NCBI GenBank assembly: GCA_035084275.1
Contig: CM068749.1
Coordinates: 13,392,001 to 13,456,000 of the forward strand
Direction: 5' to 3'
DNA from: Hydrolagus colliei
Taxonomy: Eukaryota
DNA: 64,000 nucleotides
How positions within the stretch are numbered: position 1 is the first letter of the stretch; each line of letters begins with the position of its first letter. Positions 283 to 60,537 of the stretch are shown piece by piece. A program made the translations under genes and the position numbers. Under the pieces are notes generated by a model. That model saw nothing but the letters and a program-made list of their open reading frames with translations, was not told where the DNA came from and ran no database searches.

Positions 283-558
283 GGCCGCTTCCTCCGCAAT
301 CGGTCCGAGCTTCTCTGACTAGTAATTCAACCGGTGGACCTCTGGAGGTTTTGGTCTCGTGGAGTCATGTGAAAGGCTCGCAGAATTACACTGCTTCACC
401 CACTGAAAAAAATCGCAACACAGTCCAGAACTGTACATCACCTTCTACGTCCTGCACTATCTCGCCGGTCGACTGCAGCAAAACGTACAACATCACAGTA
501 ATTGCCATCAATGATGCAGGTCCTTCTCTGCCTGCAAATGCCACCGAATTGACAACTG
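283..558 (+). CDS. FNDC7: FNDC7 exon (FN3 module GPLPPQSVR...ELTT)
   Basis: ttgtttcag acceptor, gtttgt donor, 276 nt, phase 1-1. Confidence 0.88.
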
Positions 559-4699: not shown

Positions 4700-4957
4700 A
4701 AAAACCCAGATAAGTAAGGTAAAACTAAAAAAAATTTGAAAGAATTATTTGGTACATAACAGTTTTTTAAGTATTAAACTAAAATGTAATATTTTCTAAT
4801 AGATGTTTATTTTAACAGGATTAGGATTACAGATGAACAAAACAAGATTATTCCCACAGAAATCAAACTGAAATGATTTTCTTCACAATATACTTACTTT
4901 AGACTATGGACTTATGCAAATTACTTAGATGCTTCCTGTTCTTAAATGCTGGGAAAC

Positions 4958-16200: not shown

Positions 16201-19200
16201 GTTACGATCTGGAATGCTCTATAATGTGACAATCAAAGCTTTCAGATCCTTCCCTGTGGTTGCCATTGCTTGGAAGACAGGAAGAACAGGTAATAAGATC
16301 TTCACGTTCTTAAAAGCGTTTAGGAAAAGAATGAAAAGAAAAGAATCCCCATCATTTGTATTAGAGATGAGTACACTCCACACATCTGTCTTTTGTGTAA
16401 GACTGTCTTAACTCTCTAATGACAAGGTGACCGCCATGCAGTGATGACTCGTGTATTTTACTGAAGCTTGCCCAACAGGCTCTAAGGGCAGCTCTCTATT
16501 GGCAGAAGTTCGCAAGTTCTGGGTGATTGCGATTTCCTGTGGAAACTTGCAAGATCGTTGGTTACAACACTGGAGAAATAGCGCCAAAGAACCTGAAATA
16601 CTTTCAATATTCCGGACAGGTGCAAAAAAATAGTTGGCCAACAAAACTGAGTCATGCTGGATCAATTTGTTTCCAAAATAAAGACCAGTCTGATAGGGTA
16701 TGTGCTATCAGTGGAGCATTACCTCTGATGACTTTTCAGACACCCATTGGGCAAAAACGAATCAAGCCTAGAAAATAAGTATTAAACAAAACAATATTGC
16801 TCCCACAGCTACAATTTACAATACAAATACACCAGGCTTCAAAAACATCAGGCATCAGATGTGATCCAAAAGAAGGGTGACACCACTTTGCAGGAGCAGT
16901 GTGCTGGTGAACTCAACAGCTTGCGTCCTCACCCGTACCAAGTTCCGCGACCACATCACTCCCACCCTCGCCAGGCTGCATTGGCTCCCGATCCCCCAGG
17001 GGATCAAATTCAAGATCCTCATCCTTACTTTCAAGGCCATTCACGGCCTTGCCCTCTCCTACCTTTCTGACCTAATGTGCCCCTATTATCCTCCACACCC
17101 CCTCCATTCAGTGGGCTCCGGCCTGCTCCATGTCCCCCACCCGACCCACCCTAGCATCAGCAGATGGACTTTCAGCCTCTCTACCCCCACACTCTGGAAC
17201 TCCATCCCACAGTCCCTTTGCCTCGCTCCCTCCCTTGCCTCCTTCAAGATTGGTCTCGAGACCCTCCTCTTCAATTGTGCCTTCTGCTGCCCTCCCAAAT
17301 CTTTCCCTCCACTCCTAACTCTCTTCCACCCCTCTCCCCCCTACCCTGCCCCTCTCCCTTGCTCGGGTCCCGACCTGACTGTTCAGCCCCTTGGGACGTC
17401 CTCCCGACATGAAAGATGCCCTATAAATTTTATTTTGTTGTTGTGTTAAATGTCAAATGATTGCAAATTCAATCCTGTCATACTTGTGTCTGGCAGTAGT
17501 TAGCACATTAAAGATTTAACCTCATCATTTTAAATTAATTTTTAGCGCAAAATATGAAAATCGTATCCTACAGTTACATTATGCCTACGCGTTAGCAATT
17601 GTCTGTTGACTAACTTTTTAAAATCTTTTTATTTGTAAAGTGCCGAGAGGACCAACGATCGTCAGTTTGGCATCAAATGCAAGTTCATTTATCACTGCTG
17701 AATGGACAAGTGTAGTGGGAGCAGATTATTACATTCTGAATTTGAAATCCAAGGCCAGCGAATATAATTTTTCTTTTTATGATACCGAGGGAATTGCCAC
17801 AAAGTTGCACTCAGCCACTATCTACAATGTTGTCGTCTTTGCAGCAAATTCAGCTGGTGTTAGCTATCCTAGCAGAATGAAGCAAGTTGTTACGAGTAAG
17901 TTCCATTCACTTCTTCCAGATTTAAACAAAAACTCCAGTTAAAAATAAAATCCAGCCCAAATGCTATAAGACTTGCATGTACAGTACTGTACTTTACTTT
18001 GCTTAGTTTACAATTTAACATTAGAGGCATGTGTAAGCAAAATGTATCCATTAAACCATTGGGAATAACAAAGCTTCTATAATATTATTTACTATATGTT
18101 TATTATTTAGTGAAAACATATTATAGTTTGAACAATTAAATATGATTTCACTTTTCTCGTTACAGTGATAAGACCTCCAAATGACTTCAGAGCTACAGCT
18201 GTTAACCAAAGAACTGTCAACCTAGAATGGGATCCATTGCCTAGAGCATTGAAATTTGGCATCACTGTGTACACAAATTCCAAAGAAGTGGCCATAATAT
18301 CAAAAGAAACATTTAATAATTTCATACAACTATCAGGACTTGAACTCTGTACCCAATACACCATTACACTGAAGTCAATGAATGATTTTGGCCTTTTTGG
18401 TGAAGGCACTTCACTATATTATGCAACTGAAAGTAAGTAATATGTACAATTTGTTTTGCACTCTATGATGAAGTGACTTTATTGCATTATATATTGAATA
18501 ATATATTGGAATGTATTATTCAAACTTAGTTAATGTTCCTCAAAGCAACACAGTCTACATTTGCTATCCTGGAGCTAATGAGCTGTGAAATTTACTGTGA
18601 CCACACCATTTACTGACTCAAACATACAGAGGTCTCCTCAGACATTTTTTTATTTGCCTCTATTGACCTCCAGGCTGGACAGGAATGCCTGATTTTGATA
18701 TGCAGTTTGCTGAACTCAGGTGTTTCATATATTGTCAGTTTCACTTCTTAATCAGATGATTTTAATTTGAGATCAAAATAAATGATCGATTTCTTTGTGA
18801 ATTTCTTTCTCCACAGCCTTGAAACCAGTAGTTAATCTGGAAGCAGTTTACAATTGCACTGGGGGTTTAGTGGAAGTATCATGGCATGCAAATCCCCTGG
18901 CAACATCTTACAAAGCAATTGCTAGAAGCGAAAGAGGTGTCACTAAGCATTGTACATCATCAACAACCAACTGTAGAATAAATGGCCTCCATTGCCACGA
19001 AAAATATGCCGTAACAGTTGTGGCAGAGAACCACGACTGCACTGGTGCCGAAAGTCACAGTGTTGCATTTGATACTGGTATGTTTTATTCAATCAGCAGA
19101 TGTTTCATTATGTTGTACTTATTTTTTAGCAAGTTAACCTGTACACTAATTGTTTTGTGGAAGCATGCTTGTTTTCTTACGGGAGGTACTACCCACAATT

Positions 19201-22200
19201 TTGAAACAATGGTTTATTTCTTCCATTTGTGGACATTGTGTGAGCCCACAACAAGCGGTAGTGTGTTTTAATACATCACGTCGTCCATCACAGTCACATT
19301 TCAGCATGAACAATTTGGCACAGTTTCATCGAATCTCAATAATGCTCTCAAAGTTTGGTGATTCTACCATGGCTCAAACAGTAGAGCTGGTTTGTTGGTG
19401 GCAGAGCATTGTTTCAGCTCCAGTCTATTGCTTCAGGCGATTAAAAGCAAAATATTGATATTTGTAATAATTTGTAATTATTGTAGAATCGTAGAAATAT
19501 ACAGAACTGTAGGAGGCCATGTGGCCCATGAGACCACACCGACTTTCACAGGAAGGTAATCAATCAATCCCACTGCCCTACCTTATCCCCATAACGCTTC
19601 AAGTTGGTAACCTTCATATATTTTATATGAAACACTGTGACGAGAGCATAGAACTAGGGCATTTACCACAACTGATCCATGCTGGTTAGAATGTTTATAC
19701 TTCACTCTCGTACATCCCTATTCTCTTCTCACTTCATGTATGGGTGATTTGACTAATTGAAGTTTATTTTGTACCTGATTGATAACTATTATTTTCCTTT
19801 GTCATTCTTACAGAACCTTGTGCTCCTCAGAGTTTGCAAATATCTCGTGACTGCCACGTTAACAGTGTGCAAATCTCCTGGACTGCCAGCATGGGTGCCC
19901 TCTTTTACCGAGTAAATCTATGGTCATCTGACGGAATAAAAGATCAGTGTCACACAAGGGGGATCTCCTGTTTATTTCCCTCTCTACCGTGTGGACGGAA
20001 TTTCAAATTGAATGCATTGGCCATATCAAGCAGCAGCTGTCACAGCAACGTCAGTGACACAGTTGAAATAAACACAGGTAATAACCAACCCACAGCAAGC
20101 AGTTCATGTAAAGTTTGGGATTTCATGGTGGAGCCTCACTTCAAAACTGAGTTAGGTTAATTTGCGCCGGACAACTATTTAATAAGTAAGATTCCATCTT
20201 AGAGATGGAATCATCATGATCTTCCATCAACTTAGAGATGTGCTCAAGTTACTTCTCAACCAGCCCCCAAGGTGCCCTCACAGTGATTCTCCTAACTTCT
20301 CCATCGTTGTTCTGGGAAGGCACCTGCAGTGTAAAGCTCTACCTCAACCTATAAGACTATTTTAAATGCTGTCCCAATCTGCAATCTGGTGCAGATTGGT
20401 GGAAAGCAGTCAACTTCCAAATTAAGAACTGATTAAAGAACTACTGCACTTTTGCACAATTATAATTTGAAAACAAAGACTATGGGGCTTCTGGGTACAT
20501 CCTCAAAGCTGAGATTGGCAACTCAGTAGAGCAAGAAAATAGATTTATATATAACTACATTAGATACAGTATTTTGGAGCTCTGTTTTCATTCTCCCAAC
20601 ACAAAATGCTAGCCCAAATCACGGTATAATAACTGAAGTGAGATCTTGAGGTCTATAAGTTGTCTTTTTCTGGTGTTCCTGCTGTCAGAGAGACTAGTTT
20701 CTATTGAACAGCAGATCCAGACATTATGTTTTATTAAAGATTCTTTATGTACAAGCACGTTGGTCGACTCACCTATTTTGCTTGCTTTCCAGGTCCCTGT
20801 GTACCCCAGCAATTGAAAGCTACCACTGATTGCAAGTCGAACGTAAACATTTTGTGGGAGACAGCAGAAGGAGCCCTGCAGTATGAAATTGAGGTCATCG
20901 GAACTAATCATATGAAATACAACTTCACCACTTCTACCAACGCTTTTGCACTCCACAATTTGCCATGTGGGACTGGTTTTGTTATATTTGTTAGTGCTAA
21001 CAATAATGAATGCAACAGTGGTAAATCTTATTATGCCATTGCAGAAACAGGTACAGTACAGCATAGATGATTTTTGTCCCATTTGACTAGCAGTTGCCGT
21101 TGTTTGGCATTTACAGATTTAGATTTGAAAGCCTTGTCTGTTTTTATATCATTCCAAACATGTGTTTTCCTCTTCTACAGAGCCCTGCACCCCTGAGAGT
21201 GTCACTGCTCAGATGAACTGTAATACTAACATAGCAACTGTTCTATGGAGAAAGTATGATGGTGCATTCATTCACTCGGTCGTTGCTGAGGGAATTAATG
21301 GAGATCAATTTACGTGTTTGGGAGGTGATACGACCTGCCAGCTACAAGGACTGAGCTGTGGCGAGATATACGTTGCTACAGTCATTGCTGTTAATTTGAA
21401 TTGCAACAGTTCCCAAAGTGCTCCTGTCAATATTCAAACAGGTGATTCTCTCCTGCAAGTTAAAAATGAAAATCTACATTTGTTCTGAAGAGGCTGAATA
21501 TCCCATTCATTCTGTGATCAGAGATGGGAAAATCGTATTTGGAGTTTAAAAAAACATAGAATAGTCGGATGCAGATGGACTGAAATTCTGTTCAGCTTTA
21601 CCTAGATCAATAGGCCTCCTGCTTCTCCCTTGTGCCCTCCATTCCACCATCTGTGGGCTGCACTTTGAGCCACTATGCCCCAAAACTCTGGAATACTTTC
21701 CCTCTATCCCTCTACTTTGTCCCTCCTTCCCCATTTTCAGATCACGCCTAAAGGCCTTCATCTTTGACCATGTCTATGGCCACCTCCTGCTTCCACCCGA
21801 CTGGGCATTGTGCTCTGCCACTGTCGAGTGCTCTGGGAAGCTACCTTGCATGAGGAGCGGTATATAAATGCAAGTTCTTGTTGTTGTTATAATATTGGTT
21901 GCAAATGGGATTCCAGCATTGAAAATTCTGGTTTGATCCTTAATTGAGCACTACTAAAAGCATTAAGTGCATTGCCAAATGGAATCTCAGCCCAAAGAGT
22001 TTTAAATATTTTATTACTTTGTAGCAAAGGTTCTTTGCAACAATCTTTAGATTGGCTTTTTATCTGCACTGATTTCAATAGAGTAATTTAGTTCTGTTTT
22101 AGCCATTCTTTAATATTTCAAACACTCCTCCCCCTCCCCCCATACCACCTCACCCCAACCGAAATCTGTAACTCAGTACAAAATGGCTTGAAACGTGCAC

Positions 22201-25200
22201 TGAATTGTTAGAATGAGAGGAGGATTTATGCCACAAATTCAAGTCCTTGGGTTCAATTCCAGGCAGGGAGAAACTTTTTGCAAATTTCCTTACTCCACAC
22301 ACCTAATAATAATCCCTCATTTGAAAAAAAACAATAATAAATTTGTAATTTTAATCTGTGACTGTTTGTGGGACACTGCAGTGCGGAATTGGCTGCCGCA
22401 TTTCGCCCACATATATTCAGTCAATTAACTTTAGAGTATATTCTGTGAAGCACTTTGAGAAGTCTAGAAGATGTGAAAAGCGCTATATCAAATGCAAGGA
22501 TTATTATTATTGTATAAATTCGACTGGCCAGCCTACCTCAGAATCCCTAAGTGCTAAAGAATAGAAAGAAGAGTGTTACATCATAGAGACTGTACTTCTG
22601 CCCGAGCTTCATTACACAGTTGTTGTTTACTTCAATATTTAATTCAATATTAAATGGGGACAGTGATTGATTTTCCACTCAAGAAACGTTTGTACAAAAA
22701 GCTATCTCTTAGCTCCATATTATCCCCAAGACATAGATGCTTACATTAACTGCGGTAATAATTCCGCTTTGCTGTCTATTTAAAAAGGTTTCATTAACAT
22801 TCCTCTCTCTGTATCGCAGTGCCATGTGTTCCACAGAATGTGATAGCACATCAGGACTGTACTGCAAACACTGTTTCAGTATCGTGGAGTTCCAGTGCTG
22901 GGGCAGTGACATACACAGCAGCAGCTGCAGCACCCGAAAGTGATGGAGTGAAATATTCATGTAACACAACACAAGATAACTGTGAAATTACAAATCTCCC
23001 ATGTGGCCAGGAATACTCTATTACTGTAACAGCGTCTGATGAACAGTGTCGTAGCGGTAATAGCCCTGCCATCCACATTGAAACAGGTATTGAATTAGCT
23101 CTGGGAAGCAGAAGTAATTCTGCGAGGTGAATGACAGTATTTATTATTTTGTTGTTGGAGACAACATTAAAAAAAACTACGGTTTATAATTTCATCTATT
23201 TTCTTCAGATAATATGCGATCTTAATAAACTTTAAAAAATATATAACACATGAATGTTTGCAGTGTAATTTGTCTAGCTCTGTAAAATATGCTATTTGGA
23301 AAAATGTTTATCTCTTCAGGAGCATTCAATGTAATTATTTCTTGTCTTGGTTTATTTTCCTCTCCTTGCATCAAGGTGAACCAGCCACGGGTTGCATGGC
23401 ACAGAATGTATATGGTTATTTGAACTGTGGCAATAATACTGTCTCCATGTCATGGGCAAACAATAATGGAATCAACTTATTCATACTAACGGTAGAAGGA
23501 AATCACGGACACACAACTTCACTCAGCACGGCAGAGACACACGCTGAGATCACAGGCCTGAAGTGTGGTCAGAAGTATAATGTAATCATAAAATCAGACG
23601 ATGTGGCATGCGACAACTCAAGAGGCTCAGCGTTTATGACTGAGACAGGTACTGCAACATCCTCTGAACATTTAGTTAGAACAAGTTATGAGGAGGGGTG
23701 GTTGAGGCCAGGATAGTGAACTCATTCAAGACACAGATGTAATACCGAATGCTAAAACAAAAGTTAAGTTGCAATTCAGGAAGGTTAAAGGCCAAAAGGC
23801 ATTTAAACTTTTGTGAACTCATGATCCTTTTGCAAATGGTACATGGCAAGCATAGGTGTATGAAAGATAGCCCTTTGAATTGATATGAATTGTCTGCTTG
23901 TGAACATGTTTTGTAACCTTGGGCTGGCAGAACTCATGTCCCAGTGAAAATATTTACACTCAGATACAGAATGTAGTGTGATGTATTTCTTATCCCAAAT
24001 GTCTCTTTGATTTTTCTGTGTGTTTGAGCAGTCCCGTGCCCTCCCAAGAATGTGTCAGCTCGACAGGACTGTGCCACTAAGATTACCTCTGTATTGTGGG
24101 ATCTCAGTGATGAGGCAGTGTCTTATAGAGCAGTGGCAGAAGGGAGTGATGGAACAATGCATTGGTGTAACACAACAGACACAAACTGTAATATCCCAAA
24201 TCTACATTGTGGCCATGAATATATTATAACTGTAAGAGCATTCGGTGAAAAGTGCACAAGCAACCAAAGCAACATCTACCAACTTAAAACAGGTACAACA
24301 TTACCTTGGAAAAATACGTATTTCAATGAGATTAATGGTATTGTTTATTATTAGGTTCAATATAATGCAAAAATATAGAATCAGTGATTTAACAACAACA
24401 TCAAATTACATTTATATTGTGGCCTTTCACGCTAGATAAAGATGTTCCAAGGCTCTGGACAGTCAAAAGTTTGCAGCTGAGCTGGGTGTTGGAATTAAGA
24501 GGGTTGGAGGGCAAGGAGCAGTTGAGGTGTGAAAGTGGCTGACAACATAAGCAAAGAGTAAGGCCTGAGATGGGCTTTGATGAAGACAATGGAGGGTGCG
24601 AGAGGAAGGGATGAAGTTCCATAGGGTGGGATAGAAAAGGCTGAAGGCCCGACTGCTGATGGTGGGGCAGGAAGTGAGCGAGAGATAGATTTGATAGATT
24701 TTGTTAAGACGACGTGAAAGCTTTTGTAGTGGAGTACCTGGATAATTTGAGAAAGCAACAGCAACTAAAATTTAACTTCTATTTTTCCAGGCTGTGGACG
24801 TGCTATTGCAAAGAGCTTCCATGTAATTTTTTTTTGCCTCTGTTAATTTCTCCCTTTCTGTTGCACTAAATCAGTCTTGGAATGCATGCCACAATATGAA
24901 GTCTGGCTATTTGAGCTGTGACAGTGATACGGTCTTTGTGTTGTGGGCAAACAATAATGACATTGCATCATACACGGTAAAGGCAGAAGGGAATCTCGGA
25001 CACACGGCTTCACTCATCACGACAAAGACACACGCTGAGATGACAGGCCTGCAGTGTGGTCAAAAGTACAATATAATCATAAAATCAGCCAGTGTGGCAT
25101 GCGACAGCTTTCAGGGCTCAGAGTTTATGACTGAAACAGATACTGTAACAGCATTTAAGTATTCACAAGCATTTGTTTCAAAAGGAATAATTAATAGTCC

Positions 25201-28200
25201 TAATAGCTAAATAATTTGTCACTTTTTCATTCATGTCATTTACATTTCCGTATTTGTTATGCACAGAGAATGTGTTGGATGTGAAAGTGTAGAATTATTG
25301 CCACGGCTCTGCCCTTCGCAACCATTTCTTTGGCAATTTCTTTTAATCTTTTTCCCATTTTAAAATGTCTCCCTTTTGGTTCTCCTCCTTTGGTCTGTAG
25401 AGCCGTGCGCACCCCAGAATGTGATGATGCATCCAGAGTGTCCCAACACTGATGCCACAATATCATGGAATTCCAGTGCCGGCGCTGTGTCGTACACAGC
25501 AGTGGCAGAAGGGAGATATGGAGTGATTCATTCATGTAACACAACAAACCCCAAGTGTGAATTTGCAAATCTTCACTGCGGCCAAGAATATTCTGTAACT
25601 GTGAGAGCGTTTGGTGAAAAGTGTGGGAGCCACAAAAGCTCTGCCTTCCTTCTTGAAACAGGTACAGTACTAACACTAAGAAAGTATTTCTTTGAGTTGA
25701 ATGATGCTATTTATTATTTACTGTTAGGTCTAATATTGACAATTTAACAGATTTGCTTTGCATCGTAGTAAAAATTGCTATTGTGACAAACTTGCCCATT
25801 TTAAGATTGAACATTTAAAGTATATTGAACATTTTTCACTTGCTTATAAATACAATGTAAATGCTCACAGTTTGTGACCAAGACAGGTATGTTTACACCT
25901 TCAATAATGTCCATTACACATGTTTTCACTGAGAGCCTTAGTAACAGAACAAATGACCACCAGGCTGATAACTGCAGATTCAGTAATTTGCCTATTTTTT
26001 ACACTCAGTAAATATACCGAACATGACACTTAAGGAATTCATGCTTCCATATGCTGCTGCAAATTTATCATTTGGTTATTAATGAGAAACATTAAATAAT
26101 AATCTTTGCATTCAGTATTCACTTCTTTCACATTGGGTGAACATCTCAAAGAGCTTCCCAGGATATACTTTAATGCCATTGTTTACAATGCACTGTGTTA
26201 TAAAGTATTTCTGTGAGATTAATGATGGTTTTATGATTTAATTTTTATTTGTTAGCATTTTTTATGATAAGGAACTCTATCCTGGAGTCCCTCCCTCTAT
26301 TCAAGGCACATTTCAAAATATATCTCTATGACCTTGGATTTGGTCATTATTCTCCACCGCACACCACTCAACTCCCACCTTTAGCTTTTTGATACATTGT
26401 CCCAATGTGAACAGTGCATATACATATAAATTGTGTTGTATTGTATTATACTGTATTTTACTAAACACTTCAAATAAGTGCAGTCTGAAAAGCTAAAATT
26501 AATTCTTTACCCATTTTTAAAAAAATCTTTGTCTGTTTACAGTGCCATGCATTCCTCAGAATGTCACAGCTCAGCAGGACTGTGTCTCTAAATCTGTCCC
26601 AGTATCATGGATATCTAGTGATGGGGCATTATCATACCAGGCAGTGGCCACAGGCATTGATAAAGCAATACATTTCTGTGATGCACCGAACACTAACTGT
26701 GAAATCACAAATTTACCATGCGGCCGTAATTATTCTGTAACCGTAACAGCAATCAATGCAAAGTGTTCAAGCAACAGGAGTTCCGCCTTTACTTTAAAAA
26801 CAGGTACAGTATTAACACTGAGAAATATATATCTTTGGTGACATGTATGACGTTATTTATTATTATATCCAAAAATAATAAAAAGTAGCTTTTATGGTTT
26901 ACTAGATTTTCATTAGCAGATATTCAACACCAATGTGAAAATCTGGATGAATAGTTCAGGAATGACTAGTCACAATTGCTGTCTTAACATTGTATTGAAT
27001 TTTGTAAAAATGCGATTGTGACATTCTTTGTTAGACTCATGGGTGGGGGGGCTCTTCAATGCCTTCCCCCCCACCCACCGAATATGTTGGAATTCCATCC
27101 CACAATCCCTTTGCCTTGCTCCCTCCCTTGCCCTTTACAAGCCTGGTCTGAATACCCTACTCTTTGACCATGCCTTCAGTTACCCTTCTACCTCACCCCC
27201 ATATCCCCATGTTTGGGTCCAGAACCCTGACTATTCAACACCTTGGGATGTCCTCCTGACATAAAAGGCGCTCTGCAAATGTCATTTTGTTGTTGTTCTC
27301 TTTATTCTTATTTTGGAACACACAATCATTATTTTTACCTTTGTGAATTTCTCTCTCTGTCTATCGCGTTGAATCAGTCTTGGAATGCAAGCCACAGAAC
27401 GTTTCCAGCTATTTGAACTGTGACAATAATACCGTCTACACGTGGTGGTCAGAGACTAATGGAATTGAATCATACAAGATTATGGTAGAAGGGAATCTCG
27501 GACATACAACTTCATTCAATACGACAGGGACACACGCTGAAATCACAGGCCTGCAGTGTGGCCAGAAATATAATGTAACCATAAAATCAGCTAATCTGGC
27601 ATGCAGGAATTCTCAAGGCTCAGAATTTATGACTGAGACAGGTACTGTAACAATCTCAAAACATTTAGCCCAAGTTCATTACAAATTCAATAACCATTAA
27701 CCTTAAACGTAGAACAATTCACCTTGTCTTTGTGCACCTACTGTTTTGATATTTTCTTATACTTAACGTGTGGTATGGAAAATTCACATACAGCGAATTA
27801 GAATTTTGAAAATTTGGGGATTACAGCCGTGTGTTCGCTTGCAGCTATTTTTGTTCAAAAGGATCATTTGTTTTAATTTATTTCCCAAAGATAATGTTTG
27901 TTTAACTTTCCTCTGTCCATTCGCAGTGCCATGTGTTCCCCTGAATGTGAATGCTGATCTGGACTATGCCACTAATGATGCCTCTGTATCGTGGAATCTG
28001 AGGGCTGAGGCTCTGTCATACACAGCAGTGGCACAGGGGAGTGATGAACACATGCATTCATGTCACACACCAAACACTAACTGTGAAATCACAGATCTAC
28101 ACTGTGGCCAGGATTATTCGATAACTGTAAGAGCGTTTGGTGAAAAGTGTGGAAGCAGCAAAAGCTCTGACTTCCACCTTCAAACAGGTACGACATTAAC

Positions 28201-40200: not shown

Positions 40201-40982
40201 TTGTTTCTACATTTGTGTTTTCAAACATGCAGCACCCTGCACCCCACTCAATGTCACTGCGGTTCAGAACTGCAATAGTAACTCTGCCACCATATCGTGG
40301 GAGAAGAGTGGAGGAACAAGCTCTTACGTTGCAACAGCAACATCGCAGGTTGGAGATGTATATTGGTGCAACACAACAAATACAGCGTGTGAAATTACAG
40401 AACTGCAATGTGGCCAGATATATAACGTTACTGTAATGGGACAAGATGAAAACTGCCATAATGCACAAAGTGACTCTTTTGAAATGCAAACAGGTATATA
40501 ATATGACAAAGAATATTTATTTAGTCATTTAAATTTAGAAAGTTATGCTATCTTTCAAATAGCTATAGATTATTTTCAAAATGTCAATGATGAATTGTGT
40601 GCTCTTTGTCACCATAAAGTGTTCCTAGGTATAATCAGAGCCGGGAGTAAATTCAATGCATTGTTAAGAATGGGTCAAATAATGCGATACATTTCCCTTA
40701 ATATTTAGCACCCTGTATCCCACAAAATATTGAAGTACATCTCGACTGCACTACAAATAGTCTATCTGTGTCATGGGAAGAAAGTGCTGGGACAGCCTTG
40801 TACACAGCAACAGCAGAAGGGAGCGATGGACACTTGCACTCCTGCATGTCAGCCAACAACAGCTGCGAGGTGGAAAATCTTCACTGTGGCGGGGTTTATA
40901 ATGTAATAGTGGAAGCATCAAATGAAGAATGTCATAGTTCGACAGGCTTCGGTGATGACATCCGAACAGGTATGCACTCTTT

Positions 40983-41016
<34 letters not shown>

Positions 41017-44000: not shown

Positions 44001-47000
44001 AAGTGATTTGAACCATTTAGAGGATGTGCAAAGCGCTCTATCAAATGCAAGGATTATTATTATTATTAAATTGCAAAACCTAAACCATTATATTGTGACT
44101 CACAGTTGGAATTGCATCTGTTTTTGCTTTTATATCATTGCAGAACCCTGTATCCCAGAGAACGTTACGGCTTTTGTAGACTGTGCATCCAATGTTGCAA
44201 TACTGTCATGGGATCCAAGTCCTGGAGCTGATTCATATGTTGCAACTGTAAATGGAAGCAGTGGCCAGAGATTGTCATGTAACACAACAGAAATAAACTG
44301 CGAAATTCCAGATCTGCCATGTGGCGAGTATCACATGGTGATTGTCAAAGCGCTGGCTGATCACTGTAACAGTTTACAATCTTCGGAATTAGAAATTAAA
44401 TCAGGTATTATTATCCTCAATTTCAATCTGACTGTGATCATCTGAAGTAGATGCAAAACAAATTACACAAAGCAATGCATTTTACAAAATAATATTGGGT
44501 GATGCTGAGTCAAGTAGGAAGGATTGATCATTTAAGAAACAGTTAGATGCTGTAACGAGAAGAGGATAGGTCTGATGTTTTGGAAATCAAATGTACAGAA
44601 AGGCCTTCTTCAACCAAACATCTCTGGTGAGCTTGTAACTGAGTTATTCATTACTGTTATATCATTCAATGCATAGGTGAATGTGTTAAAACACTTACAA
44701 TAAATTGTTTTTCTATTTGATGATGTGGATTAATATAGGGTGAAGCAGCTCATGGAACCTCAGCATCAAATATCATGCATCAAAATCATTAAAGGTGTTG
44801 AAAAATTCAGATGGATCTGGAAACGTACAAGTTCTAGAATTTCAATGACCCATGCTGTTCTGTGTCCTAATTAACATTGGCAACCTTGTAGGATGAAAAA
44901 CACTCTTCTAAAATGTTTGCCTCCTCCTTAAAGATAGGTCACTACCAATATGACATGACTTATCTGGAAGTCTGGCTCTCGGTTGATGGCAATTCACTTC
45001 TGAAGCAAAGGGTCAAAATTAGGTCAAGATTCAAATTTCAATCTTTTCAATGGGAGTTGAATACATTAGACGTTATGGGAATGTCTAGATTAAATGATTA
45101 TTTAACAAAGTCCACTGATGTTAGTTTCGTTCACTTTCATTTTTACTCTTCCCAAAAGTACCCTGTCCGCCTCAGAATGTGGAAGTTGTTTTGGAATGTG
45201 AGAACAACACTGCCTTGGTAGTGTGGGATCCATGTAATAAAACAGTGATGTACACTGCATTAGCAAAAGGGAGTGATGGACACACAGCTCTATGTACCAC
45301 ATCCGATGCATATTGTGAAATATCAGATCTTCATTGTGGACTAATGTATAGTATCACTGTACAAGCCTTTGACGACAACTGCAATGGAAGTGAAAGCATG
45401 ATTTATGAAATTCAGACAGGTAAATATATGTTCATTGGAATGATTTATACCCCATGTATTGCACTGGACACATTGCATAAATGAGAGAAAAAGCATATGA
45501 TATTGTGATGGGAAATACCTTAGAAGGCACCAGTTTTGTATAGATTAGATGCTCGATCAGTGGGGGAGTTAAAGATAACAACAACAACAAAATTACACTT
45601 GTACAGCGCCTTTCACTTCAGGAGGACGTAAACGAGGTGTACAAATGGTATCAAATCTTAAAATTGTTTTGAAAAGATGGTAATGATATAATACAGTTAT
45701 TTTAATGTTTTGTGGAAAGATCCACATAGCAAAAAGTAGAAAGAATTGTTTTACAGTGGCTTATCACATCAAAACATCAACAAATATTTCACTGGTAAGT
45801 CACATCAAGTGGAGTGACTGTTTTTGTATGCCAATTCTACAAGGTTCCCGCAACCATCCAATAGGTGAAAGACCAATTAATCCGGAGGGCTGTTGTCAAA
45901 AACAAACGTGTTTCTGCTTTCTGATTAGTGTCAAATTATCTTTAGCGGCCAGATGGCTTAAAATCATATTCAAAAGACAGCGCTCCCAACATCGCAACTC
46001 CCACCTTCCTACCGTCAGAGTTTTAAACCAAGTACAATCTTCTGACCAAGCAGCTACCAATTGACCCAAGGTGATTCATGTGCATCACATTAAGGTGTAA
46101 TGTTCGAGTGGTCACATTTCCTGAAAAACAACTGAGAGCAAACTGAAACTGAAATTATACAGTAAAATAATTAAATTCCACAAATTGGAAAAGTTACAGA
46201 ACAATAGCAGACAATAGGGAAATAAGGAAATATGCAGTTAATATATTCCAAGTCAACTGTATTCATTTAATTAAATAATCAGCGCAACCTATCATTTTTA
46301 TTAGATATGATTAAATGCACCCTGGGCACTACCCTGGACAAGGGGCGCTATATAAATTCAAATTGTTGTTGTATTAATTCAAATTGTTGTTGTATTTTTT
46401 CCCCTCTTATTTCCTTTCTTCAGCACCATGTATGCCAGAAGAGTTTACTGCTCACCTGGAGTGTAATTCTAACACAGCAATAATCTCATGGGTGCAAAAT
46501 AATAGGACAGAATCATATGTTGCAACTGCAGAAGGATATGATGGACATACTCATTCATGCCAAACAACAGGGCTAAGCTGTGAAATTTTCGACCTGCACT
46601 GTGGACAGACTTATACTATAACTATCACTACACTAAGTGAAAAATGTAACAGTACTACAAGATCATTTGTTGAAATCACAGCTGGTAATAATTTCTTCAA
46701 TTCCTAAAGTGATTTATAACTATGAAAAATATATTCCCATTGTTCAATTAATGTATTTACAGGACATTACCTGAACTGATATTCATTCCTATTTATCTTC
46801 ACCAGCACCATGCATTCCTGAGAATGTAGTAGCTCAGCTGAACTGTGACACAAATACTGTAATAATCATATGGGATCCAAACATTAGAGCACAATTATAC
46901 AGTGTGATTGCTGAGGACAGAAGCGGAATTCTAACTTCATTCAGCACATCAGCTACAGAAGCTCAAATTTCAAACTTGGAGTGCGGTGAGAAGTATGCCA

Positions 47001-50000
47001 TTTCTGTGCTGGCCACAGATAACACATGCAACAGTTCCCAAAGTGCAGCAATTAACATGTACACAGGTAAAATTCATATTCATTAAGCATTTTTATGTCT
47101 CTTAACACACAACGTATTCAAGAGGCACTTTGTGAACGGCATATTGTTTTTGCTATGTTTTCCATTTGCTTGGTGAAAATATAGAGTTGGTTTGAGAAAG
47201 AGGCCCCATGATACAATTATATTTTCTAATGAATGGAAACATCTGTGCTTATGTAAGATATATATCTGCATATGTGAATTATTTAGTCATTATAATATAA
47301 GAGCCGAACTAGGCAAGGTCCTCGAAAATTTAACTGAGAGGAGAGGCGTATTAAACAATAAGCAATTAAACAATATTGAAATAAAGGTAATATGATCCCT
47401 GTCTTGTTAATAACATGTTTATGATTTAATTTTCTTTCTAGTTCCTTGTATCCCTGAAGCGACAGAAGCCTTTGTGAACTGTTTTACCAATGTTGTTTCA
47501 CTTCATTGGATACGGACTAAAGGTGCAAATTCATACCTTGTCACAACTGAAGGACGCAATGGCACCATTTCTGTGGACACAGTAACAAGCATACCCTTTG
47601 AAGTTGAAAATTTAGAATGTGGAGAGACATTTACTTTAAGTGTAACAGCACAGGGTGAGACATGTGACTCTCCGAAGGGCTCAAATGTTGACATAGAGAC
47701 AGGTAAACAATTTATTTCACAGATGTTCTGATTGAAAGTAGCATCCATTACTCTTGATAAAGGCTTGTGTCCATCTGAAGAAGCAAAAGCACTGCTGAAT
47801 AGAAAATTCTAAATAATTTGAGAAACTGGACAGTACTTGTACTTCCTAAATAAAGCAACATATTGTAGAGTAAGACCAGTCAAATACGAGTAAATGTTGG
47901 TGAAACAAATATTGCATTTAATCAGTGTTGTAAACTGATGTTGTAAACGGCACAGATTCAAATTAGAGCCACATCCAGTTCGACATTTTGAAACAAAAAA
48001 GCTTCTCCAAATGCATACAACCTCTTTGAAAGAGTCACCTCCCACAGGATGCTATTACAGAATGGAAACCCTACAGCACTACAAGTTATCAAGTATTTTT
48101 CCATATCCATAATGTTTAATATATTAAGTGATATAGTGCAGGTTTTATTTGCCATTCACTTTCTCTTTTGTTTAGAAACTCAAATATGACAGATATGCTC
48201 TACTGTCCTTGACTATCAGATAAATTTACCACTGTACAGTATTGTATATTTGAAATCTGTGGTCTTCTATGCATTTTAAACTTCCATTTCCTTTGTTTAA
48301 TTCTAGTCCCATGCGGTCCACAGATGATAAATGTAATTGTGGATTATGAGCTAAACACTGCCCAAGTGTCCTGGAATCAAAGTAAAGGTGCTAAATCGTA
48401 CTTTGCAACCGCTTTAGGAGATAACTGGGACTTTCTTTCATGCCGTACCTCAGAAACATCCTGCACACTACCCGTGTTATCTTGTGGCATGATTTATTCT
48501 GTGCTTGTCTATGCATCTAACAACAAATGCAATGAGTCGCAGAGTACAGCAGTTACAATCAGTTCAGGTAACATCACTTTTCGGTGATTAAATTAGTATG
48601 TTAATCAAGTAGAATCCCAGTTTAGAATCAGTATAATGTAAAGCACAGAAGAAGGCCATTCAGCCCACTATGTCTGTGCCAGGCCCCTTGAACAATCCTT
48701 TTAGTCCTACTTATCTGTCTTTTCGCCATATCCCTGACTCCAGGTAAGCAAGATGAACTGCATTAGAAGCAACAATAGAATATTTTTTTTTTTGAATTGA
48801 CCAAGTAAAAAATGACCAGAGAAGTGGTTTTAAGTTTTCAATAGATCACTATTATACATTTACTGTCCAACATTTTCAATACTAAAAAATAGAGGATGCA
48901 TATTTTATTTTTAGCTTTCATGTCACATTTGTATAAATGTTTGCATTTAAAGTAAATGCTGAATATGTCTTAATTTATGTCTCCTGTTTCTGAACTTTCA
49001 GCTCTATGCAGGCCCCAGAATGTAAGTGCTTCCGTTGACTGTCACAATAATTCAATCTTAGTAAATTGGGTGGAAAGTGAGAGAGCAATATTTTATACTG
49101 CATTTGCCGAAGGAATGGAAGGAGACAAAGTTTCATGTGAAGCAGAACACTCATTTTGTGCACTCACAGGACTCCTGTGTGGAGAGATTTACAGCATAAC
49201 TGTTTTTGCGATCAATGACCAAGGTAGCAGTTTACCAAGTTCTGCTATTGATGTTGAAACAGGTAAAACTATGTTTATTCTTCGGAAAATTAACAGAAAG
49301 GCAGAGGTGTTCGTAATGATGCTACATATTAGAAATGAATCATTAGTTTGTAATTAAATAAATGTTCTATTGAAATATCAGTTTTAAAAAAATAACTTTT
49401 ATTTGATTCTGATCGAATTTTTAGTTTCTCTATTTACTGCTTTGAAAAGTCTTCTGGGATCAAAAGAAACATTTGTTGCGATGAGGTTTTAATAATTGAT
49501 GTTGTGACTGCTAATTTTGCTAAAGGAATTTAAGTTGCAAATAGATGTAATTAATTATTTAATAAAAAACTGTATTTAAAATTTTAATACTGCCTTCTTG
49601 TGTTGCAATCGTCATTGTTTTAATAATAAGGGACCATGTTACTATCAAAGAAATGCAACTTTAGTCACCTGTGGTAATAAATGTATTTTTTATTCACAGT
49701 TCTCTCATGTGATTTCTTCTGTTTACAGTTCCATGCACCCCACAGAATGTAACCGCTTCCCTCAACTGTGATACTAACGATTTGTTAGTTTTATGGAATC
49801 CTGGTAATATCACAGAGACATACGTAATAACAACAGAAGGAAATGATGGGTCATTTACGTCATTCAATGAAACAGAAGCTAATACTACAATTTCCAATCT
49901 GCCTTGTGGACAGACATATTATATACGTGTACAGGCAATCAGCTCCCAGTGCAACAGCTTAGTAAGCTCTGCTGTTGACGTCAGATCAGGTAGCAAGGAA

Positions 50001-53000
50001 TAAAATATTGTGAACTATTCCTATAATTGATGGTGTATTGCAGCTCTTCTTGTGGACAACTGTAAGCCTTTGATCTTTTTGCAGTGGGTCATAACTTGCA
50101 CATTTTCTTTACACACAGCACCATGTTGCCCACAGGATGTGGATGCTCACATGGACTGTAACACTGGATTTCTGTCAGTCTCGTGGCAACCAAGTGAAGG
50201 CGCAGTATCATTTACTGCACGTGCAGAAGGGAGCAGTGTATCTATATCATCATGTACCTCTAACAGCACGATGTGTGAAATCACTGATTTTGAGTGTGGA
50301 GAGATCTATAATATAACAGTTTATGCTCATGCCGATTTGTGCGTCAGTCTTGAAAGTCCTCGTATCACGCTGAAAACAGGTAATTGGAGACCCATACCAA
50401 AATGGGCAGTTCGAATAAGGATTTATATCCTAATACCAATGTATGTGTTTTCACCTCTGACCTAGTAATCAGATTACACACCAATACAAAATGAGATATT
50501 AAATGACTTTTTTTAAAGTTGCAAATGTTAATATAAAACATTAGTTTCTGTTGTAACTTTCCTGCTGATATTACTATCCTGATCACTCTTGTATTCTTAT
50601 CAGATCCAGATTAACTGCTAGATTCACATGCATCATCTGACTTTATTTTCTTTGTTTTTAGCCTCGTGTGCCCCACAAAATGTCAGTGCTCATCTGGACT
50701 GTGACACCAATGATGCTCTCGTATCATGGGCAGACGCGAAAGGTACAGAGACATACTTTATAACAGCAGAGGGAAGAAATGGGAAAACAATATCATGCTA
50801 CACAAGCGACATATATTGTGAACTATATAATCTACCTTGTGGAGATATATATAATTTGACTGTGACAACAATGGATGCAGTATGTGACATTTCCCACAAC
50901 TCTCACTTGGATATTATATCTGGTAAGTGCTATTGTATGTGGTATGAAATTTAAAACAATTGTATTTGATTTCACACATGACAGAACACTTGTTGGAAGG
51001 CTTCAAATACTGTACTGTACAAGCAATATTCTGCTAAAATATTCCTGTTATATAAGAAAAAAAATATCTATAAGTGTGTTAGGAAGTGAATAAATATGTC
51101 CAGGGCAGGAGTTGACTTCATTTTTTTTCTGAACATAATTCATTTTTTTTATATGGGAACCAAGAAGCATGACATTTTCTGTATTTAGGGCTTTTGCTTA
51201 AAGGGCTGAGAAAGGGGATTGAGATTTTCTTTAAATCTAATAAACTGGTGCAATTGCCTAGATGGACTGAATGCCTCCTCTTTTTCCTGTTTTCTTATCT
51301 TCTTATGCATTCTGCTTCATACATCCACATTTTTTTTAACCAGTCTTTTAAAAAAAAACTCTACAGCTTATATACATTTTGCTTTTAGATTCCTGTACGG
51401 TAGTTTTTTTTTGACATATTTTACCTTTTTAGCACCATGTCCTCCATACTATGTCGATGTTGATGTGGAATGTGAAAATAACACAATGCTACTGTCATGG
51501 GGTGATAGTGACACAGCACTATCATACGTAGCATCTGTAAATGGCAGTGATGGAGCCTTATTCACTTGTATCACAACAAACAGAAGCTGCGAAATCAATA
51601 ATCTGGTATGCGGTGTCAAATACATAATTGATGTAGCGTCTGTGGATGGAAATTGCAATAGTATATCCAATGCATCTCATGAAGTCGGAGCAGGTAAAAA
51701 TTATCTTTAATATCAATTATTATATTTTGCTCAAATTGATCCATGAGAAAGTTAATGATAATACAGATTAGTATTCTCCCTCAGTTATTCAATTAAAAAA
51801 AATTCTGCCATTAAATCATTAAGTGTAATATTAACATTTAAAAGTAGATCAAAATATTGATTAGACATGTTCTACTACACTAAGTCAATTAATTTGCTTT
51901 ATAGGAAGTCAAAACATTAATTGAAATAGTAATAACAAGCTGAAGTATTTTATATCATAACTGATTTTCTTTTTTGTATTGTCTAGTTCCTTGTGCACCA
52001 CAAATTTTACAAGTTAGTTTAAACCCTCCTGGTGATGGTCTACAGGAGGTAGAGGTCTTCTGGAGTGACAGTAGCTGTGCTGAAGTTTATCAAGTAACTA
52101 TAGAAGGATACATTGAACTGGATCCAAATTCCATGTATATCTTACAATCATACTGGACTCCTACAGATAACTTCATTATACCAGTTCCTTGCAGTTCCTC
52201 ATACAAAGTGTTTGTCACAGCTAGAAATTCAGCAGGAATCAGCAGCCCTAGTTTTCTTTGGATTGGTGTTACTGGTAAGTGACCAAATACAGTACAGTAT
52301 AAGACAATTTAATGTGTGTAAAAAGTGAATGATTACAGCCAGTTTTAACAGGTCTTCTGGAATGGCATGGAAATAAAAATCATCTGCCTTGTAATCTAAT
52401 TTTGGTTTTAACAGCTTGTCTATATTAAATGCCTTGGAGTTGTACTGTTTACTACAGTTTAAACTATTTAGTTATTTTTCAAGGCAATAATCCCTCTTGG
52501 TGCATTGAGGAAAAACAGGAGCAACACTCCTTCAGTTGTTCACATTTGATATAGTGCTTTTCACATCTTATCGACGTCTCAAAGTGCTTCACAGAATGTA
52601 TGGTAAAGTGAATTGACTGTATATTTGTGGGCGAAACACAGCAGCCAAGTGAGCACAGCAGTGTCCCACAAACAGTCGTGGATTGAAAAATGATCCATTT
52701 TAATGGTTTTTGGAGGGACAGATTATTACTAGGTGTGTGGAGTAAGGAAAATTGCCCAAGGTTTCGCCTTCATCTGCCTGAATTCAAACACAGGTCTCAT
52801 GCTTGTAAGGCGAGTACTCTAACCATCGAGCTACAGGAGCTCCATATATTTGAGAAAACAGCACAATTTGAACATAGTATCTCTTCTCTCCTGACATTGA
52901 GTCCTGGATGAGGGCAAATTTCCTACAGCTCAAAGTCAATAAGACAGAGGCACTCCTGATTGGCTCACGTCAGTGCCTCCGCACCTCGGGCGCTGACAAC

Positions 53001-56000
53001 ATCAGCGTTCAAGGCTGCTCTCTCAACCTCTCGAAGCCAATCAGGAATCTGGGCATCTTGTTCGACCCCAAACTACCCTTCCTCCCCCACACCCACTCCA
53101 TGACCGGCACAGCCTTCCACCACCTCCGCAATATTGCCAGACTCCGCCACTACCTCACCCCCCATGCCGCCAAAACTCTCATCCACGCCTTTATCACTTC
53201 CAGGCTTGACTACAGGAACTCTCTCCTCATCGGCCTTCCTAGCTCCTCCCTTCACAGGCTGCAGATCATTCAGAACCCTGCAGCTCAGAATTCTACTTTC
53301 CTGTACCAGACTTCGTGACCACATCACTCCCACCCTCACGCGTCTCCACTGGATCCCCATCCCCCAGAGAATCGAATTCAAGATCCTCGTCGTCACTTTC
53401 AAGGCCATTCACGGCCTTGCCTCCGCCTATCTCTCTGACCTGTTGTCTCCCTATCAGCCTGCCTGCCCCCTCTGTTCAGCAGACTCAGGTCTGCTCCGCT
53501 TCCACCGCCCTAACTGCCCAAACATCGACGGCCGGGCTTTCAGCCTCTCTGCTCCCACACTGTGGAACTCCATCCCGCAGCCCCTCCACCTTGCCTCCTC
53601 CCTTTCCTCCTTCAAGGCCAGTCTCAAGACCTTCCTCTTCAACCGCGCCTTCGGCTGCCCCACTAACTCTTCCCCCTTTGATTCCCCTTCCCTAATCAAT
53701 ATGTCAAACTTTTATTTAACATACTTCCTCTTTGATGTTTTCTTTTAGCCTATTCATTTCAGCTGTAAGAATGATTCTGATACCATATTGTTTTCAATTA
53801 TACAATCTTAATGCCATGAACAGATTTTCACTTAATTCATCATTCTGTATCCTGCACCAAATATCTTTGATGGACATGTTTGAATATATCTAAACAAGCA
53901 GGTGAAATGCCTTATCAGTCCAAAAAATAAGTTTGGGGTTAGAAAACAATTTAATTAAATAAGGCATTCAAGAAATTTTCAGGTTTTGACATCAGGACTT
54001 GTCATCTGCATATTCAGACATTTTTATCCTTGAAATTAAAACTTATGACAGACAGAGTACTAGTCATCAAATGGATTGGATTACAATCTTTTTTTAAAGG
54101 CTTTGTGTACCTTAATAGTACAAAACTTTAATTGTATACATTTTTAAATCTTGTTTCAGTTCCTTGTCCTCCAAAGAACTTCACTGCAGTTGCAGAAAAC
54201 AACACTCTATCATTGTCATGGATGGAGTCAATCAATGCTACAGAATATATTGTGTATGCCGTCTCTAGTTCAGCTAATATTCAAATATGCAGAACACCAC
54301 AGCTGTATTGTGAAGCTGAAGCAAATAGTTACAACACAAATAATGTTGAAATTATTGCATCAAATTCTGTTGGTGAAAGTGAACCCAGCGTTATCAATGT
54401 CTTGCAAGGTAAGTTTTCCTGCACTAAAGACAACTGAGTTATCAGGAGGATAATTCTCAGCACTTCATAGGTATTACTGTAAATAGAATCACTGTATTTG
54501 TAAGTAAATATCGCAGCAAATGGCACAGGAATGTCCTATAGTGATAAAACAATTAACAATTTTATTTGGGGGATTGTAGGCCAGAAGAAAATCTCTTCTC
54601 TTTTCAAATAGTGCAATGGGATATTTAACGTCTACCTGAACCGGCAAAAACTTAAATTTAATATCTCATCAGAAGAGACGGCACCTCCAAAAATCCAACA
54701 CACCCAGCACTAAATTTGGAATGTTATTTTTAGGCTATATGAGTTCAAGTCCCAATGTGGAATTTGAATACTCTTACCTTCTGACTCAAGGAGAGAATGA
54801 GTCACATTCCCCAGCACCGTTCACATAAGCAATAAGCAAAAAAACACAGATAGTGGATATATCTGAGCAAAAGCGAAATGGACAGACTTGAAGGAAATCA
54901 AAAGCCCAGTGAAGTGATTTTAAAGGATTGAAAAGGTACATTTTCAGAAGTTTTGAAAATGGGAGGATGGGAGGCTGAGATTTTGGAGAGTTCCAAAGAG
55001 CTACCATTGGTGGGCATACACACATTCCTAAATTTGCAGAGATAAGGAATTAGGCAGGAATGTGGGACTGGGGGAAATTACAGAGGTAGTGAGAAGCCAT
55101 AGTGTAGAGAAATTTGAAGATCAAGAATCGTGCAGTTGATCATTGAGAAACAGGTAGCCAACAGAGCCCGGGAAGGACAATTAACTGAAATTTGTAAGAA
55201 TAAAAATCAGAAAAATTTCTAATGAAATATATTCTGAAATTAATTTTGTCTTAGCAATCAATAGAAATTAATGGCAAAACACATGTTCCAAAACATTCTA
55301 GAGGCTTTATCTTCCTGAATGTTTGTCAAATCTTGAGTTTGAAAATGGAAGAGCAGTTGCCAAAATATTACTTGCAAGTGATATGATGAACACCTCAACT
55401 CTATTCCACTACCAAACAATTTTTCTTATAGTAATTGAACTTTAAAGTAGATTCTAAAGTAGCACAAGTTATTTCTAGACATGATAAGCAAAGGCAATGT
55501 GTTTTCCTAGGAAATTGAACATTTATTTATAAAGACACTGCATGTATAACACTATCATGTAATGTTTTAATTATCAAGCACTGTTTCACAAGTTGTCTGA
55601 GGACATTCACGATTGCTAACCATAATATTGATTTGTGTTTTTAAGCAAATGTTTACTTTGTTTTAATAATACAGGGAGACATCATATTATCATTATAATT
55701 TTGAGGCCGAGGAACAAATTATACAATGCCTCTTTGAACAACGAAGGTAATTCATTTTCATAAATGAGAATTTATAAGGAAACACGTATAAATTAGCTTT
55801 ATATCTCAACATTTTTAATTTTTGGTAAACTTCACTGCTGAGAAATAGAACAATTTTGTACATTTGGCATCGAAGCAATCACAAGCCACATATTGTAATT
55901 ACAAGCTCCAAATTTTTACAGGGCAGAGAAAAGTTCAAAGCACCATTTAAAAAAATAATCACATAAAAGCACCCAATTTGAATCTCTTGATTATCCATAC

Positions 56001-59675: not shown

Positions 59676-60537
59676 TCAGTCCTCATCTGTTGCACTGCCT
59701 TCCAACTGTTCCTCCACATTACTTTTGTTCTCTCTTTCTGTACTCTGGCTTCTTCCATGGCCTTGTTTACTTGAGTGGTCCTTGCCGTCGCTGTGGCTTT
59801 GCTTGTGAGATCGTTCTGTGCTCCGACTGCGTTTACGGGCACGTTCTTTGCTATCACTACGTCGTTTCTTTATTCGTTCCCCATCATTCACACTAGTCCT
59901 TTCTCTACTAATGCTCCTTTTGTTTGATTTCTCCTTATGTTCATTTCGGTGTTTAGACTTCTCTTTGCTTTTGCTTCTACGACCCCTACCAGGACTGCCA
60001 CTTCTATGTCTTTTGTCTCGGCTTCTGCTTCTACTATGCCTTTTGTCCTTCTTGGATTCTTTTTTATCTTCTTTGTGTCTCCTTTCATCCTTCTCTCTTT
60101 TGTCATCCTTATGCTTCCTGTCTTCCAATTCTGAACGGCTTCTTTTTTCCCTGTCTTTTGATCTCTCTGGTTCTTTCTCAAAATTTCTCTCTCGGTCTCT
60201 CTCACTTGCCCTTTCCTTGTCTCTGTCATGGTCTTTGTCTCGCTTTCTGCTTCGCTCATTTTCCTTCTCTCGGTCCTTATCCCTCTTATCACTCCTTTGA
60301 TCTCTGCTTCGACTTCGGTGTCGGTCTCTACTTCTACTTCGCCTACGGTCTAAGCTTCGAGATCTATGCCTATCCTTTTCACTTCGATCTCGAATCTGCT
60401 CTCTTTCTCTTTTCTGTCGCTCCCTCTCTCTTTCTAATTCTTTCTCAAAACCAAAAGATCCATGACCATCTCTGTGGCGACTTCTGCTCCTGGATCGCCT
60501 GGGTGACTTGCGTGGACTAAGTGATCTTCTCGGTGAC
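59676..60537 (-). CDS. PRPF38B: PRPF38B last coding exon (RS domain)
   Basis: ttttaag acceptor, 862 nt, in frame SPRRSLSPRKSPRRSRSRSR..., stop TGA 59678-59676. Confidence 0.93.

Follow-up and report, generated by a model that had tools for sequence, protein, structure and literature searches.

How are neighbouring domains joined in a very long array of fibronectin type III (FN3) modules? The question is raised by a gene related to FNDC7 in Hydrolagus colliei, located in a 64,000-nucleotide stretch of contig CM068749.1 (GenBank assembly GCA_035084275.1, positions 13,392,001 to 13,456,000), which we analysed in full and call the window. Each FN3 exon of this gene encodes one module, is bounded by AG/GT and lies in phase 1; with predicted splicing, the product of the 46 live exons is about 4,019 amino acids (aa) long and contains 225 Cys and 85 N-glycan sequons. 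The Cys of the consensus module are named C1 (PCxP), C2 (LDC), C3/C4 (Cx6C), C5 (LxCG) and C6 (EKC). A sequence-only reading of the window had proposed that Cys losses in adjacent modules betray disulfides between domains. Here we provide evidence from covariation in relatives that neighbouring domains are very probably joined by two predicted disulfides, C2(n)-C6(n+1) and C5(n)-C1(n+1), in addition to an optional internal C3-C4 bond. Modules are numbered from M1 at 16029, with the boundaries of M9 set to 23385-23648, and the parts of the array that bear on the question are as follows.

16029..56877, + strand: body of the FNDC7-related (fndc7rs1/fndc7b-type) gene, 47 FN3 exons (M1-M47), 46 of them intact
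18166..19077, + strand: M3-M4 entry junction, predicted single staple from the shifted EF-loop Cys of M3 to C6 of M4
18817..51693, + strand: M4-M44 core array, 39 live junctions, 36 with predicted double staples and 3 with single ones
27927..28760, + strand: M15-M16, C2(n) and C6(n+1) both changed to Tyr
30886..31719, + strand: M18-M19, copy of M15-M16 at 98% identity with the same paired loss
45159..45419, + strand: M35, additional BC-loop Cys without a partner
48307..49262, + strand: M39-M40, C2(n) changed to Tyr and C6(n+1) to Gly
50119..50379, + strand: M42, additional Cys beside C1 without a partner
51433..52274, + strand: M44-M45, predicted pair of M44 C2 with the M45 BC-loop Cys; M45 lacks C6
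51987..54408, + strand: M45-M46, predicted single staple C5-C1
56597..56877, + strand: M47, last FN3 exon, which closes with the stop codon and has one Cys without a partner

In the window, the loss of C2 from one module is accompanied by the loss of C6 from the next. Tyr stands in place of C2 in M15 (TAT, 27965), M18 (30924) and M39 (48345), and C6 has become Tyr in M16 (28721) and M19 (31680) and Gly in M40 (49223). The paired losses named in the sequence-only reading are all present. Its further statements on individual modules also proved correct: M45 lacks C2 and M46 lacks C6; M45 itself has no C6 but carries a Cys in the BC loop; the EF loop of M3 contains one Cys, and M4 has C6 without C1; and C3 and C4 are always lost jointly, 9 of the 40 live core modules of M4-M44 lacking both and none lacking only one. 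Across M4-M44, C2(n) and C6(n+1) were both missing at 3 of 39 junctions and discordant at 0 (module-order shuffle, P=9e-5; P=1.4e-3 without the duplicate M18/M19). Because M15-M16 and M18-M19 go back to the duplication of a single block (817 of 834 bases are identical), only two of the core events are independent, to which the terminal M45/M46 case adds; with so few events in the window alone, the test was extended to relatives. The predicted scheme forms 111 bonds in the window and uses 222 of the 225 Cys, the three Cys without a partner being those in the BC loop of M35, at the second Cys of PCCP in M42 and in strand G of M47. As a separate observation, modules without C3/C4 (M9, M11, M14, M17, M20 and M22; 23385-34484) alternate with full modules, and C3/C4 loss in homologues shows a period-2 correlation (phi, the correlation coefficient for presence and absence, about 0.23 at n,n+2).

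The first set of relatives comprised 120 homologues listed of 143 matches, from sharks, rays, bichirs, sturgeons, teleosts, a caecilian and frogs, several of them named fndc7rs1, fndc7b or FNDC7; no amniote protein was among these 120, save a tilapia entry cross-labelled with a mammal's name. A profile built from 38 window modules delimited 3,453 domains in the 120 proteins, from which 473 partial or low-scoring ones were dropped, and the 2,980 full-length modules kept formed 2,774 adjacent pairs (junctions). C2(n) and C6(n+1) were both absent at 137 junctions, discordant at 11+11 and both present at 2,615, giving a phi of 0.92, alongside 0.91 for C3/C4 as internal positive control. Within the same module, phi was 0.05 for C2/C5, -0.02 for C1/C6 and 0.09 for C2/C6, and it was 0.11 for C2(n)/C6(n+2). 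A second set of 129 further proteins from another library, 78 of which had at least two core modules, supplied 821 junctions; the 51 distant proteins without two core modules, most of them Cys-poor FN3 arrays, were not counted. In the same order as above, C2(n)/C6(n+1) counts were 48/3/6/764 (phi 0.91), with same-module phi of -0.02 for C2/C5 and -0.05 for C1/C6; since the second set is related to the first, the replication is not fully independent.

Shared ancestry was taken into account by means of a tree built from 1,573 junctions (out of 2,774) after 70% de-duplication, with the Cys columns and their neighbours removed. On this tree C2(n) changed 33 times, C6(n+1) 32 times and the two jointly 42 times, compared with 64 for C2 with the C6 of its own module. 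Among 25 tree-independent contrasts, C2(n) and C6(n+1) moved in the same direction in a mean of 15.9, in opposite directions in 0 and remained unchanged in 9.1 (p 3e-5), whereas contrasts within the module (C2/C6, C2/C5 and C6/C1) all gave p>0.6. Mean-field coupling analysis placed C3-C4 at the top (z 34), followed by C2(n)-C6(n+1) (z 28, rank 3 of all pairs). Counted over 2,583 inner modules, orphan Cys numbered 25 under the proposed scheme versus 241-277 under three alternatives. Independent loss of C2(n) and C6(n+1), named beforehand as the refuting pattern, was rare (22 of 2,774 and 9 of 821 junctions). Eight of the 11 first-set junctions with C2(n) but without C6(n+1), all of them from frogs, gain a linker Cys two residues before C1(n+1); one of the nine discordant second-set junctions has a linker Cys. 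The covariation check that the sequence-only reading had asked for across FNDC7/fndc7rs relatives was thus run and came out in favour of C2(n)-C6(n+1), C5(n)-C1(n+1) and intradomain C3-C4, and the two inter-domain pairings stand as predicted bonds.

The C5(n)-C1(n+1) link behaves differently in that both Cys are almost invariant in homologues. Its coupling (z 5.9) makes it the next inter-module pair after C2(n)-C6(n+1), and C5 and C1 are gone as a pair in four separate settings: in P0082, in P0121 and P0132 with C2/C6 retained, and in the M45/M46-type junction of three gobies (3 of 90 tails, probably one event). Both ends of the array depart from the core register. In an alignment of 90 homologue tails, every tail (90 of 90) retains C2 in its last core module, and in all 90 the M45-type module that comes next carries a Cys in the BC loop, the C6 column being absent from M45-type modules; the BC-loop Cys of M45 is therefore predicted to partner C2 of the last core module. 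At the other end, the first core module has C6 in 47 of 47 homologues and lacks C1, and the module before the core places its EF-loop Cys one residue beyond C5, a position shared by 42 of 47, so that the M3-M4 junction is predicted to adopt another register in which the shifted EF-loop Cys pairs with C6.

Structure models place these Cys where the two links would need them. The AlphaFold model of M32 is a seven-strand FN3 domain (mean predicted local distance difference test score, pLDDT, 86) whose fold matches are FN3 domains; C1 lies before strand A, the AB, EF and FG loops hold C2, C5 and C6, respectively, and C3/C4 lie on strands C'/E. The available part of PMC10665226 locates the N-terminal proline motif, BC loop and FG hairpin at the N-terminal pole of FN3, and that of PMC7140400 lists AB, CD and EF as its 'south' loops. 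From the model we infer that C2 and C5, at the C-terminal pole, face C1 and C6 of the next domain; C1 and C5 would lie at opposite domain ends and so could not pair with each other inside one domain. Couplings were seen between the N-terminal segment and the FG hairpin and between the end of the AB loop and the EF loop, and the module period is 86-88 aa at 2,444 of 2,774 junctions, leaving almost no linker. The four-module homologue P0239, modelled by AlphaFold from a 48-row alignment, is extended (pLDDT 95; predicted template modelling score, pTM, 0.81) and closest to the extended fibronectin modules 7-10 (Z 19.4, root-mean-square deviation (rmsd) 8.8, 333 residues aligned).

If both links form, the 46 FN3 domains, likely secreted, would acquire their disulfides in the secretory pathway; two disulfides beside the peptide link would fix tilt and twist at each junction and provide covalent bypasses along strands A and F that limit how far a pulling force could unfold the domains. 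The result would be a rod about 140-150 nm long, rich in glycans and acting as a structural element of extracellular matrix or gel, in which junctions with C5-C1 alone would be tolerated and may bend more. A shortest-covalent-path calculation for M4-M46, assuming 0.36 nm per residue and 0.55 nm per bond, put the length at full stretch at about 280 nm if every bond forms, 830 nm if C5-C1 and C3-C4 alone do and 1,320 nm if none does, for a folded length of about 140-150 nm; the C2-C6 staple accounts for most of the extension limit. Bonds confined within domains would give a maximum of 340 nm, which is also short, so that low extensibility is not specific to stapling and junction stiffness is. 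Hence the claim of the sequence-only reading that the array is less extensible than fibronectin holds by calculation from the bonds and would follow equally from intradomain ones, and its rigid rod agrees with the confident extended tandem model, a support that is a model's. We lean towards a stiff rod, and are doubtful that single-staple junctions are functional hinges.

Other explanations of the same Cys pattern differ in where the bonds would run. C1-C6 at the N-terminal pole and C2-C5 at the C-terminal pole each share one end of the domain and could plausibly bond within it, in which case the cross-exon pattern would reflect block duplication and shared ancestry, as when M18/M19 were copied from M15/M16 in the window; yet neither pair covaries within a module in either set, the corresponding tree contrasts give p=1, this scheme leaves 277 orphan Cys instead of 25, and FNDC7 holds C1 and C5 without C2 and C6, all of which makes it very improbable. 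The four Cys that converge at each junction might also form a Cys4 metal site, which we consider the least probable reading of all: the Cys disappear as fixed pairs, each of which can persist without the other, and they are replaced mostly by Tyr, Val, Leu, Ser and Phe, seldom by His or Asp. Orthologues, moreover, open with a signal-peptide-like leader, and the secretory pathway oxidises Cys. Slightly better placed, though still improbable, is the proposal that the same pairs form partly between two parallel in-register chains, yielding a cross-linked dimer or fibre. Covariation would be blind to chain identity, and unpaired Cys occur in the window and recur at certain positions in homologues; against this stand the shortness of the junction, with the intrachain partner adjacent while the chain folds, the confident model of the single-chain tandem, and the position of the replacement Cys in the linker and BC loop, at the intrachain junction.

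A further alternative accepts the same bonds and therefore differs from the stapled rod in mechanics alone: the staples would do no more than aid folding and resistance to proteases or heat, the junctions would bend, and single-staple junctions would be neutral decay. The C2-C6 staple switched state about 33 times on the tree, and 85 of 120 proteins lack it at one junction or more, with up to 5 such junctions in a row, which fits this view; two covalent links plus the backbone would leave little rotation, however, the tandem pTM is 0.81 and C5-C1 is nearly invariant, and we regard stability alone as possible and rather unlikely. Several points weigh against two staples per junction within one chain. 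Some C2/C6 junctions are discordant in both sets (22 of 2,774 and 9 of 821), and 14 of the 22 lack a linker replacement Cys; same-module C2/C6 phi rises to 0.37 in the second set, which we attribute to runs of consecutive single-staple junctions. The z of 5.9 for C5-C1 is little above the background of 4-5 among invariant columns, and the evidence for this link consists of few events, with 5 discordant junctions in the first set and 3 in the second, several of which resemble gene-model errors. Bonds within one chain and in-register bonds between two chains look alike to covariation, the pTM of the P0239 tandem stands without an unstapled comparison model, and no convincing signal-peptide exon was found in the window by motif, splice-site matrix or tblastn. 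Taken with these points, the two inter-domain disulfides remain the pairing that we strongly favour.

The FN3 modules of fibronectin and tenascin are disulfide-free and can unfold under force, a behaviour reportedly described by Erickson in 1994; the doubly stapled array is predicted to be the opposite of this textbook FN3. Disulfides across a domain junction are known from the V-C2 bond of Siglecs and the I-EGF modules of integrins, and the Cys647-Cys872 bond of the insulin receptor links FnIII-2 to FnIII-3. This last bond is given as an alpha-beta disulfide in the available part of PMC8513149. In these receptors a single bond bridges a single junction, or the fold is not FN3, whereas the window gene would have two bonds over about 40 FN3 junctions. 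Fibronectin and tenascin tandems (PDB 1fnf, 1fnh and 1qr4) share with the P0239 model the FN3 fold and an extended head-to-tail arrangement, but have 14-20% identity, and the rmsd of 8.8 over four domains indicates a different twist. Titin A-band FnIII domains likewise form long FN3 arrays, in which conserved motifs at the N-terminal pole and linkers set junction geometry, and the accessible text reports no direct domain contacts in A84-A86 (PMC10665226); titin, however, is intracellular and stiffened by linker packing, not by covalent staples. Isopeptide-locked pilins of Gram-positive bacteria would be mechanically alike if the prediction holds, since their cross-links bypass the fold and limit extension (PMC8355295, available part), and differ in chemistry, fold and kingdom and in having their cross-links within domains. 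As a side observation, P0166, an unrelated Cys-poor FN3 array, has a Cys at the module end and another in the FG loop of the next module, a possible separate junction bond.

A sequence search returned no solved structure of the FNDC7 family, and no description of its disulfide pattern or of double stapling was found in the literature consulted, mostly at the level of abstracts and with few subscription papers; public AlphaFold models of FNDC7 may already show C5-C1 bonds. The family is known and functionally uncharacterised, and the double-stapling pattern predicted from its sequences is a new structural variant. The scheme provides a predicted residue-level disulfide map for a vertebrate family without a solved structure and, if true, a natural design for stiff protein spacers. 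As for its role, fndc7a and fndc7rs4 are markers of support cells in zebrafish neuromasts (PMC6363392 and PMC11789645, available parts), which together with the aquatic distribution suggests that long FNDC7 paralogues may scaffold a sensory gel; no link of the family to the cupula was found in the literature consulted, and the available part of the cupulin paper (PMC4219815) does not mention fibronectin. Extended further, and as a conjecture that we think unlikely to hold in full, long FNDC7 paralogues would be covalently railed, nearly inextensible rods of 150-200 nm with tunable single-staple joints, cross-linked through spare Cys and bearing load as the scaffold of a sensory gel, for instance the neuromast cupula, in aquatic vertebrates, and amniote FNDC7 would be the short, singly stapled survivor.

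Two FN3 genes stand in tandem on the + strand of the window, with FNDC7 upstream and the long array gene downstream.

283..4700, + strand: 3' part of the neighbouring FNDC7, six FN3 exons followed by a short tail exon (from 4546)

FNDC7 and the long paralogues (fndc7rs1, fndc7b and fndc7rs4) belong to the same module family and to the same locus as the window gene, and both FNDC7 and the window gene have three Cys-poor N-terminal modules followed by Cys-rich ones; FNDC7, however, has about nine FN3 modules and the C5-C1 link only, whereas the window gene has 46 live modules and the second link C2-C6. One of the FNDC7 exons in the window matches an FNDC7 entry at 92% and shark and ray entries at 74-81%. 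C1/C3/C4/C5 are present and C2/C6 absent in the window FNDC7 exons, and 46 FNDC7 proteins, birds included, keep C5(n) and the next C1 without C2/C6, so that the C5-C1 half of the predicted map transfers to FNDC7 of birds, fish and amphibians. A tail Cys follows the last C5 in 37 of 39 FNDC7 proteins, and the tail-exon Cys is predicted to pair with that C5. The Cys-rich part of FNDC7 has an odd total of 31 conserved Cys, and the Cys of an LGC motif (window 3617-3871; residue 687 of P0250), found in 46 of 46 FNDC7 proteins, is partnerless in the scheme and a candidate for dimer formation. Among FNDC7 proteins P0250-P0296, the Cys pairs 394/432 (16 of 16) and 530/536 (18 of 18) co-occur, mainly in ray-finned fish; the second Cys of PCCP co-occurs with a strand-G Cys in FNDC7 homologues; and FNDC7 exon 1267-1521 has an additional Cys (PCCP) missing in its nearest homologue.

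The sequence-only reading had confined the long array to 18166..54408; the array there is real, and these limits are too narrow, with M1, M2 and M47 lying outside. Two further features complete the gene model.

16029..17895, + strand: M1-M2, N-terminal FN3 modules without any Cys, M1 matching Pfam fn3
24875..25139, + strand: M11, dead exon with a one-base insertion and the donor GT changed to AT

M1, M25 and M32 score 32.7, 27.5 and 27.4 bits against PF00041 (cut-off 25), and M45 and one FNDC7 exon had no PF00041 match in the Pfam search; the M45-type exon has a single match in the whole genome. Strand-B Trp22 is invariant in 38 of 38 window modules, and Trp22-Tyr63 is coupled in the coupling analysis. 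The closest relatives of the window modules among the 120 homologues are mostly shark and ray proteins, the orthologue P0002 being the best match for M1-M6, M24-M27, M29 and M33-M35, and proteins of the fndc7rs1/fndc7b type share three Cys-poor N-terminal modules, the six-Cys core and the M45/M46-type end. The automatic names fibronectin, tenascin and R3 receptor phosphatase on some matches were rejected: only FN3-type families lie above cut-off in P0002 and P0001, with no FN1/FN2, EGF or fibrinogen modules, and the stop codon after M47 leaves no place in the long gene for a membrane span plus phosphatase domain. A hydrophobic, membrane-like 19-mer occurs beyond residue 40 in only 1 of 120 homologues. 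Furin-like R-x-[RK]-R precedes the last FN3 module in 53 of 120 (for example P0039, P0013 and P0123), which suggests that the C-terminal FN3 domain may be cleaved off in these homologues; between M46 and M47 no convincing exon with such a site was found by motif, splice-site matrix or tblastn.

Both lesions of M11, the insertion and the donor change, appear without differences in read-derived contigs, which are probably from the same individual. Skipping M11 preserves the reading frame and the predicted staple register from M10 to M12, showing in whole-exon loss a possible route by which the array shrinks or grows. The M15-M19 block (27927-31719) is a recent tandem duplication, 98% identical including the intron, and contig depth near 28000-30900 is 2-3x that of the flanks, a weak hint of further collapsed copies that was not used as evidence. 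On the - strand, 59679-60864 holds an Arg/Ser/Glu-rich exon without a match in the Pfam search, which we take to resemble the splicing factor PRPF38B, and the intronic pieces 16865-17446 and 52878-53745 are presumably ends of LINE reverse transcriptases.

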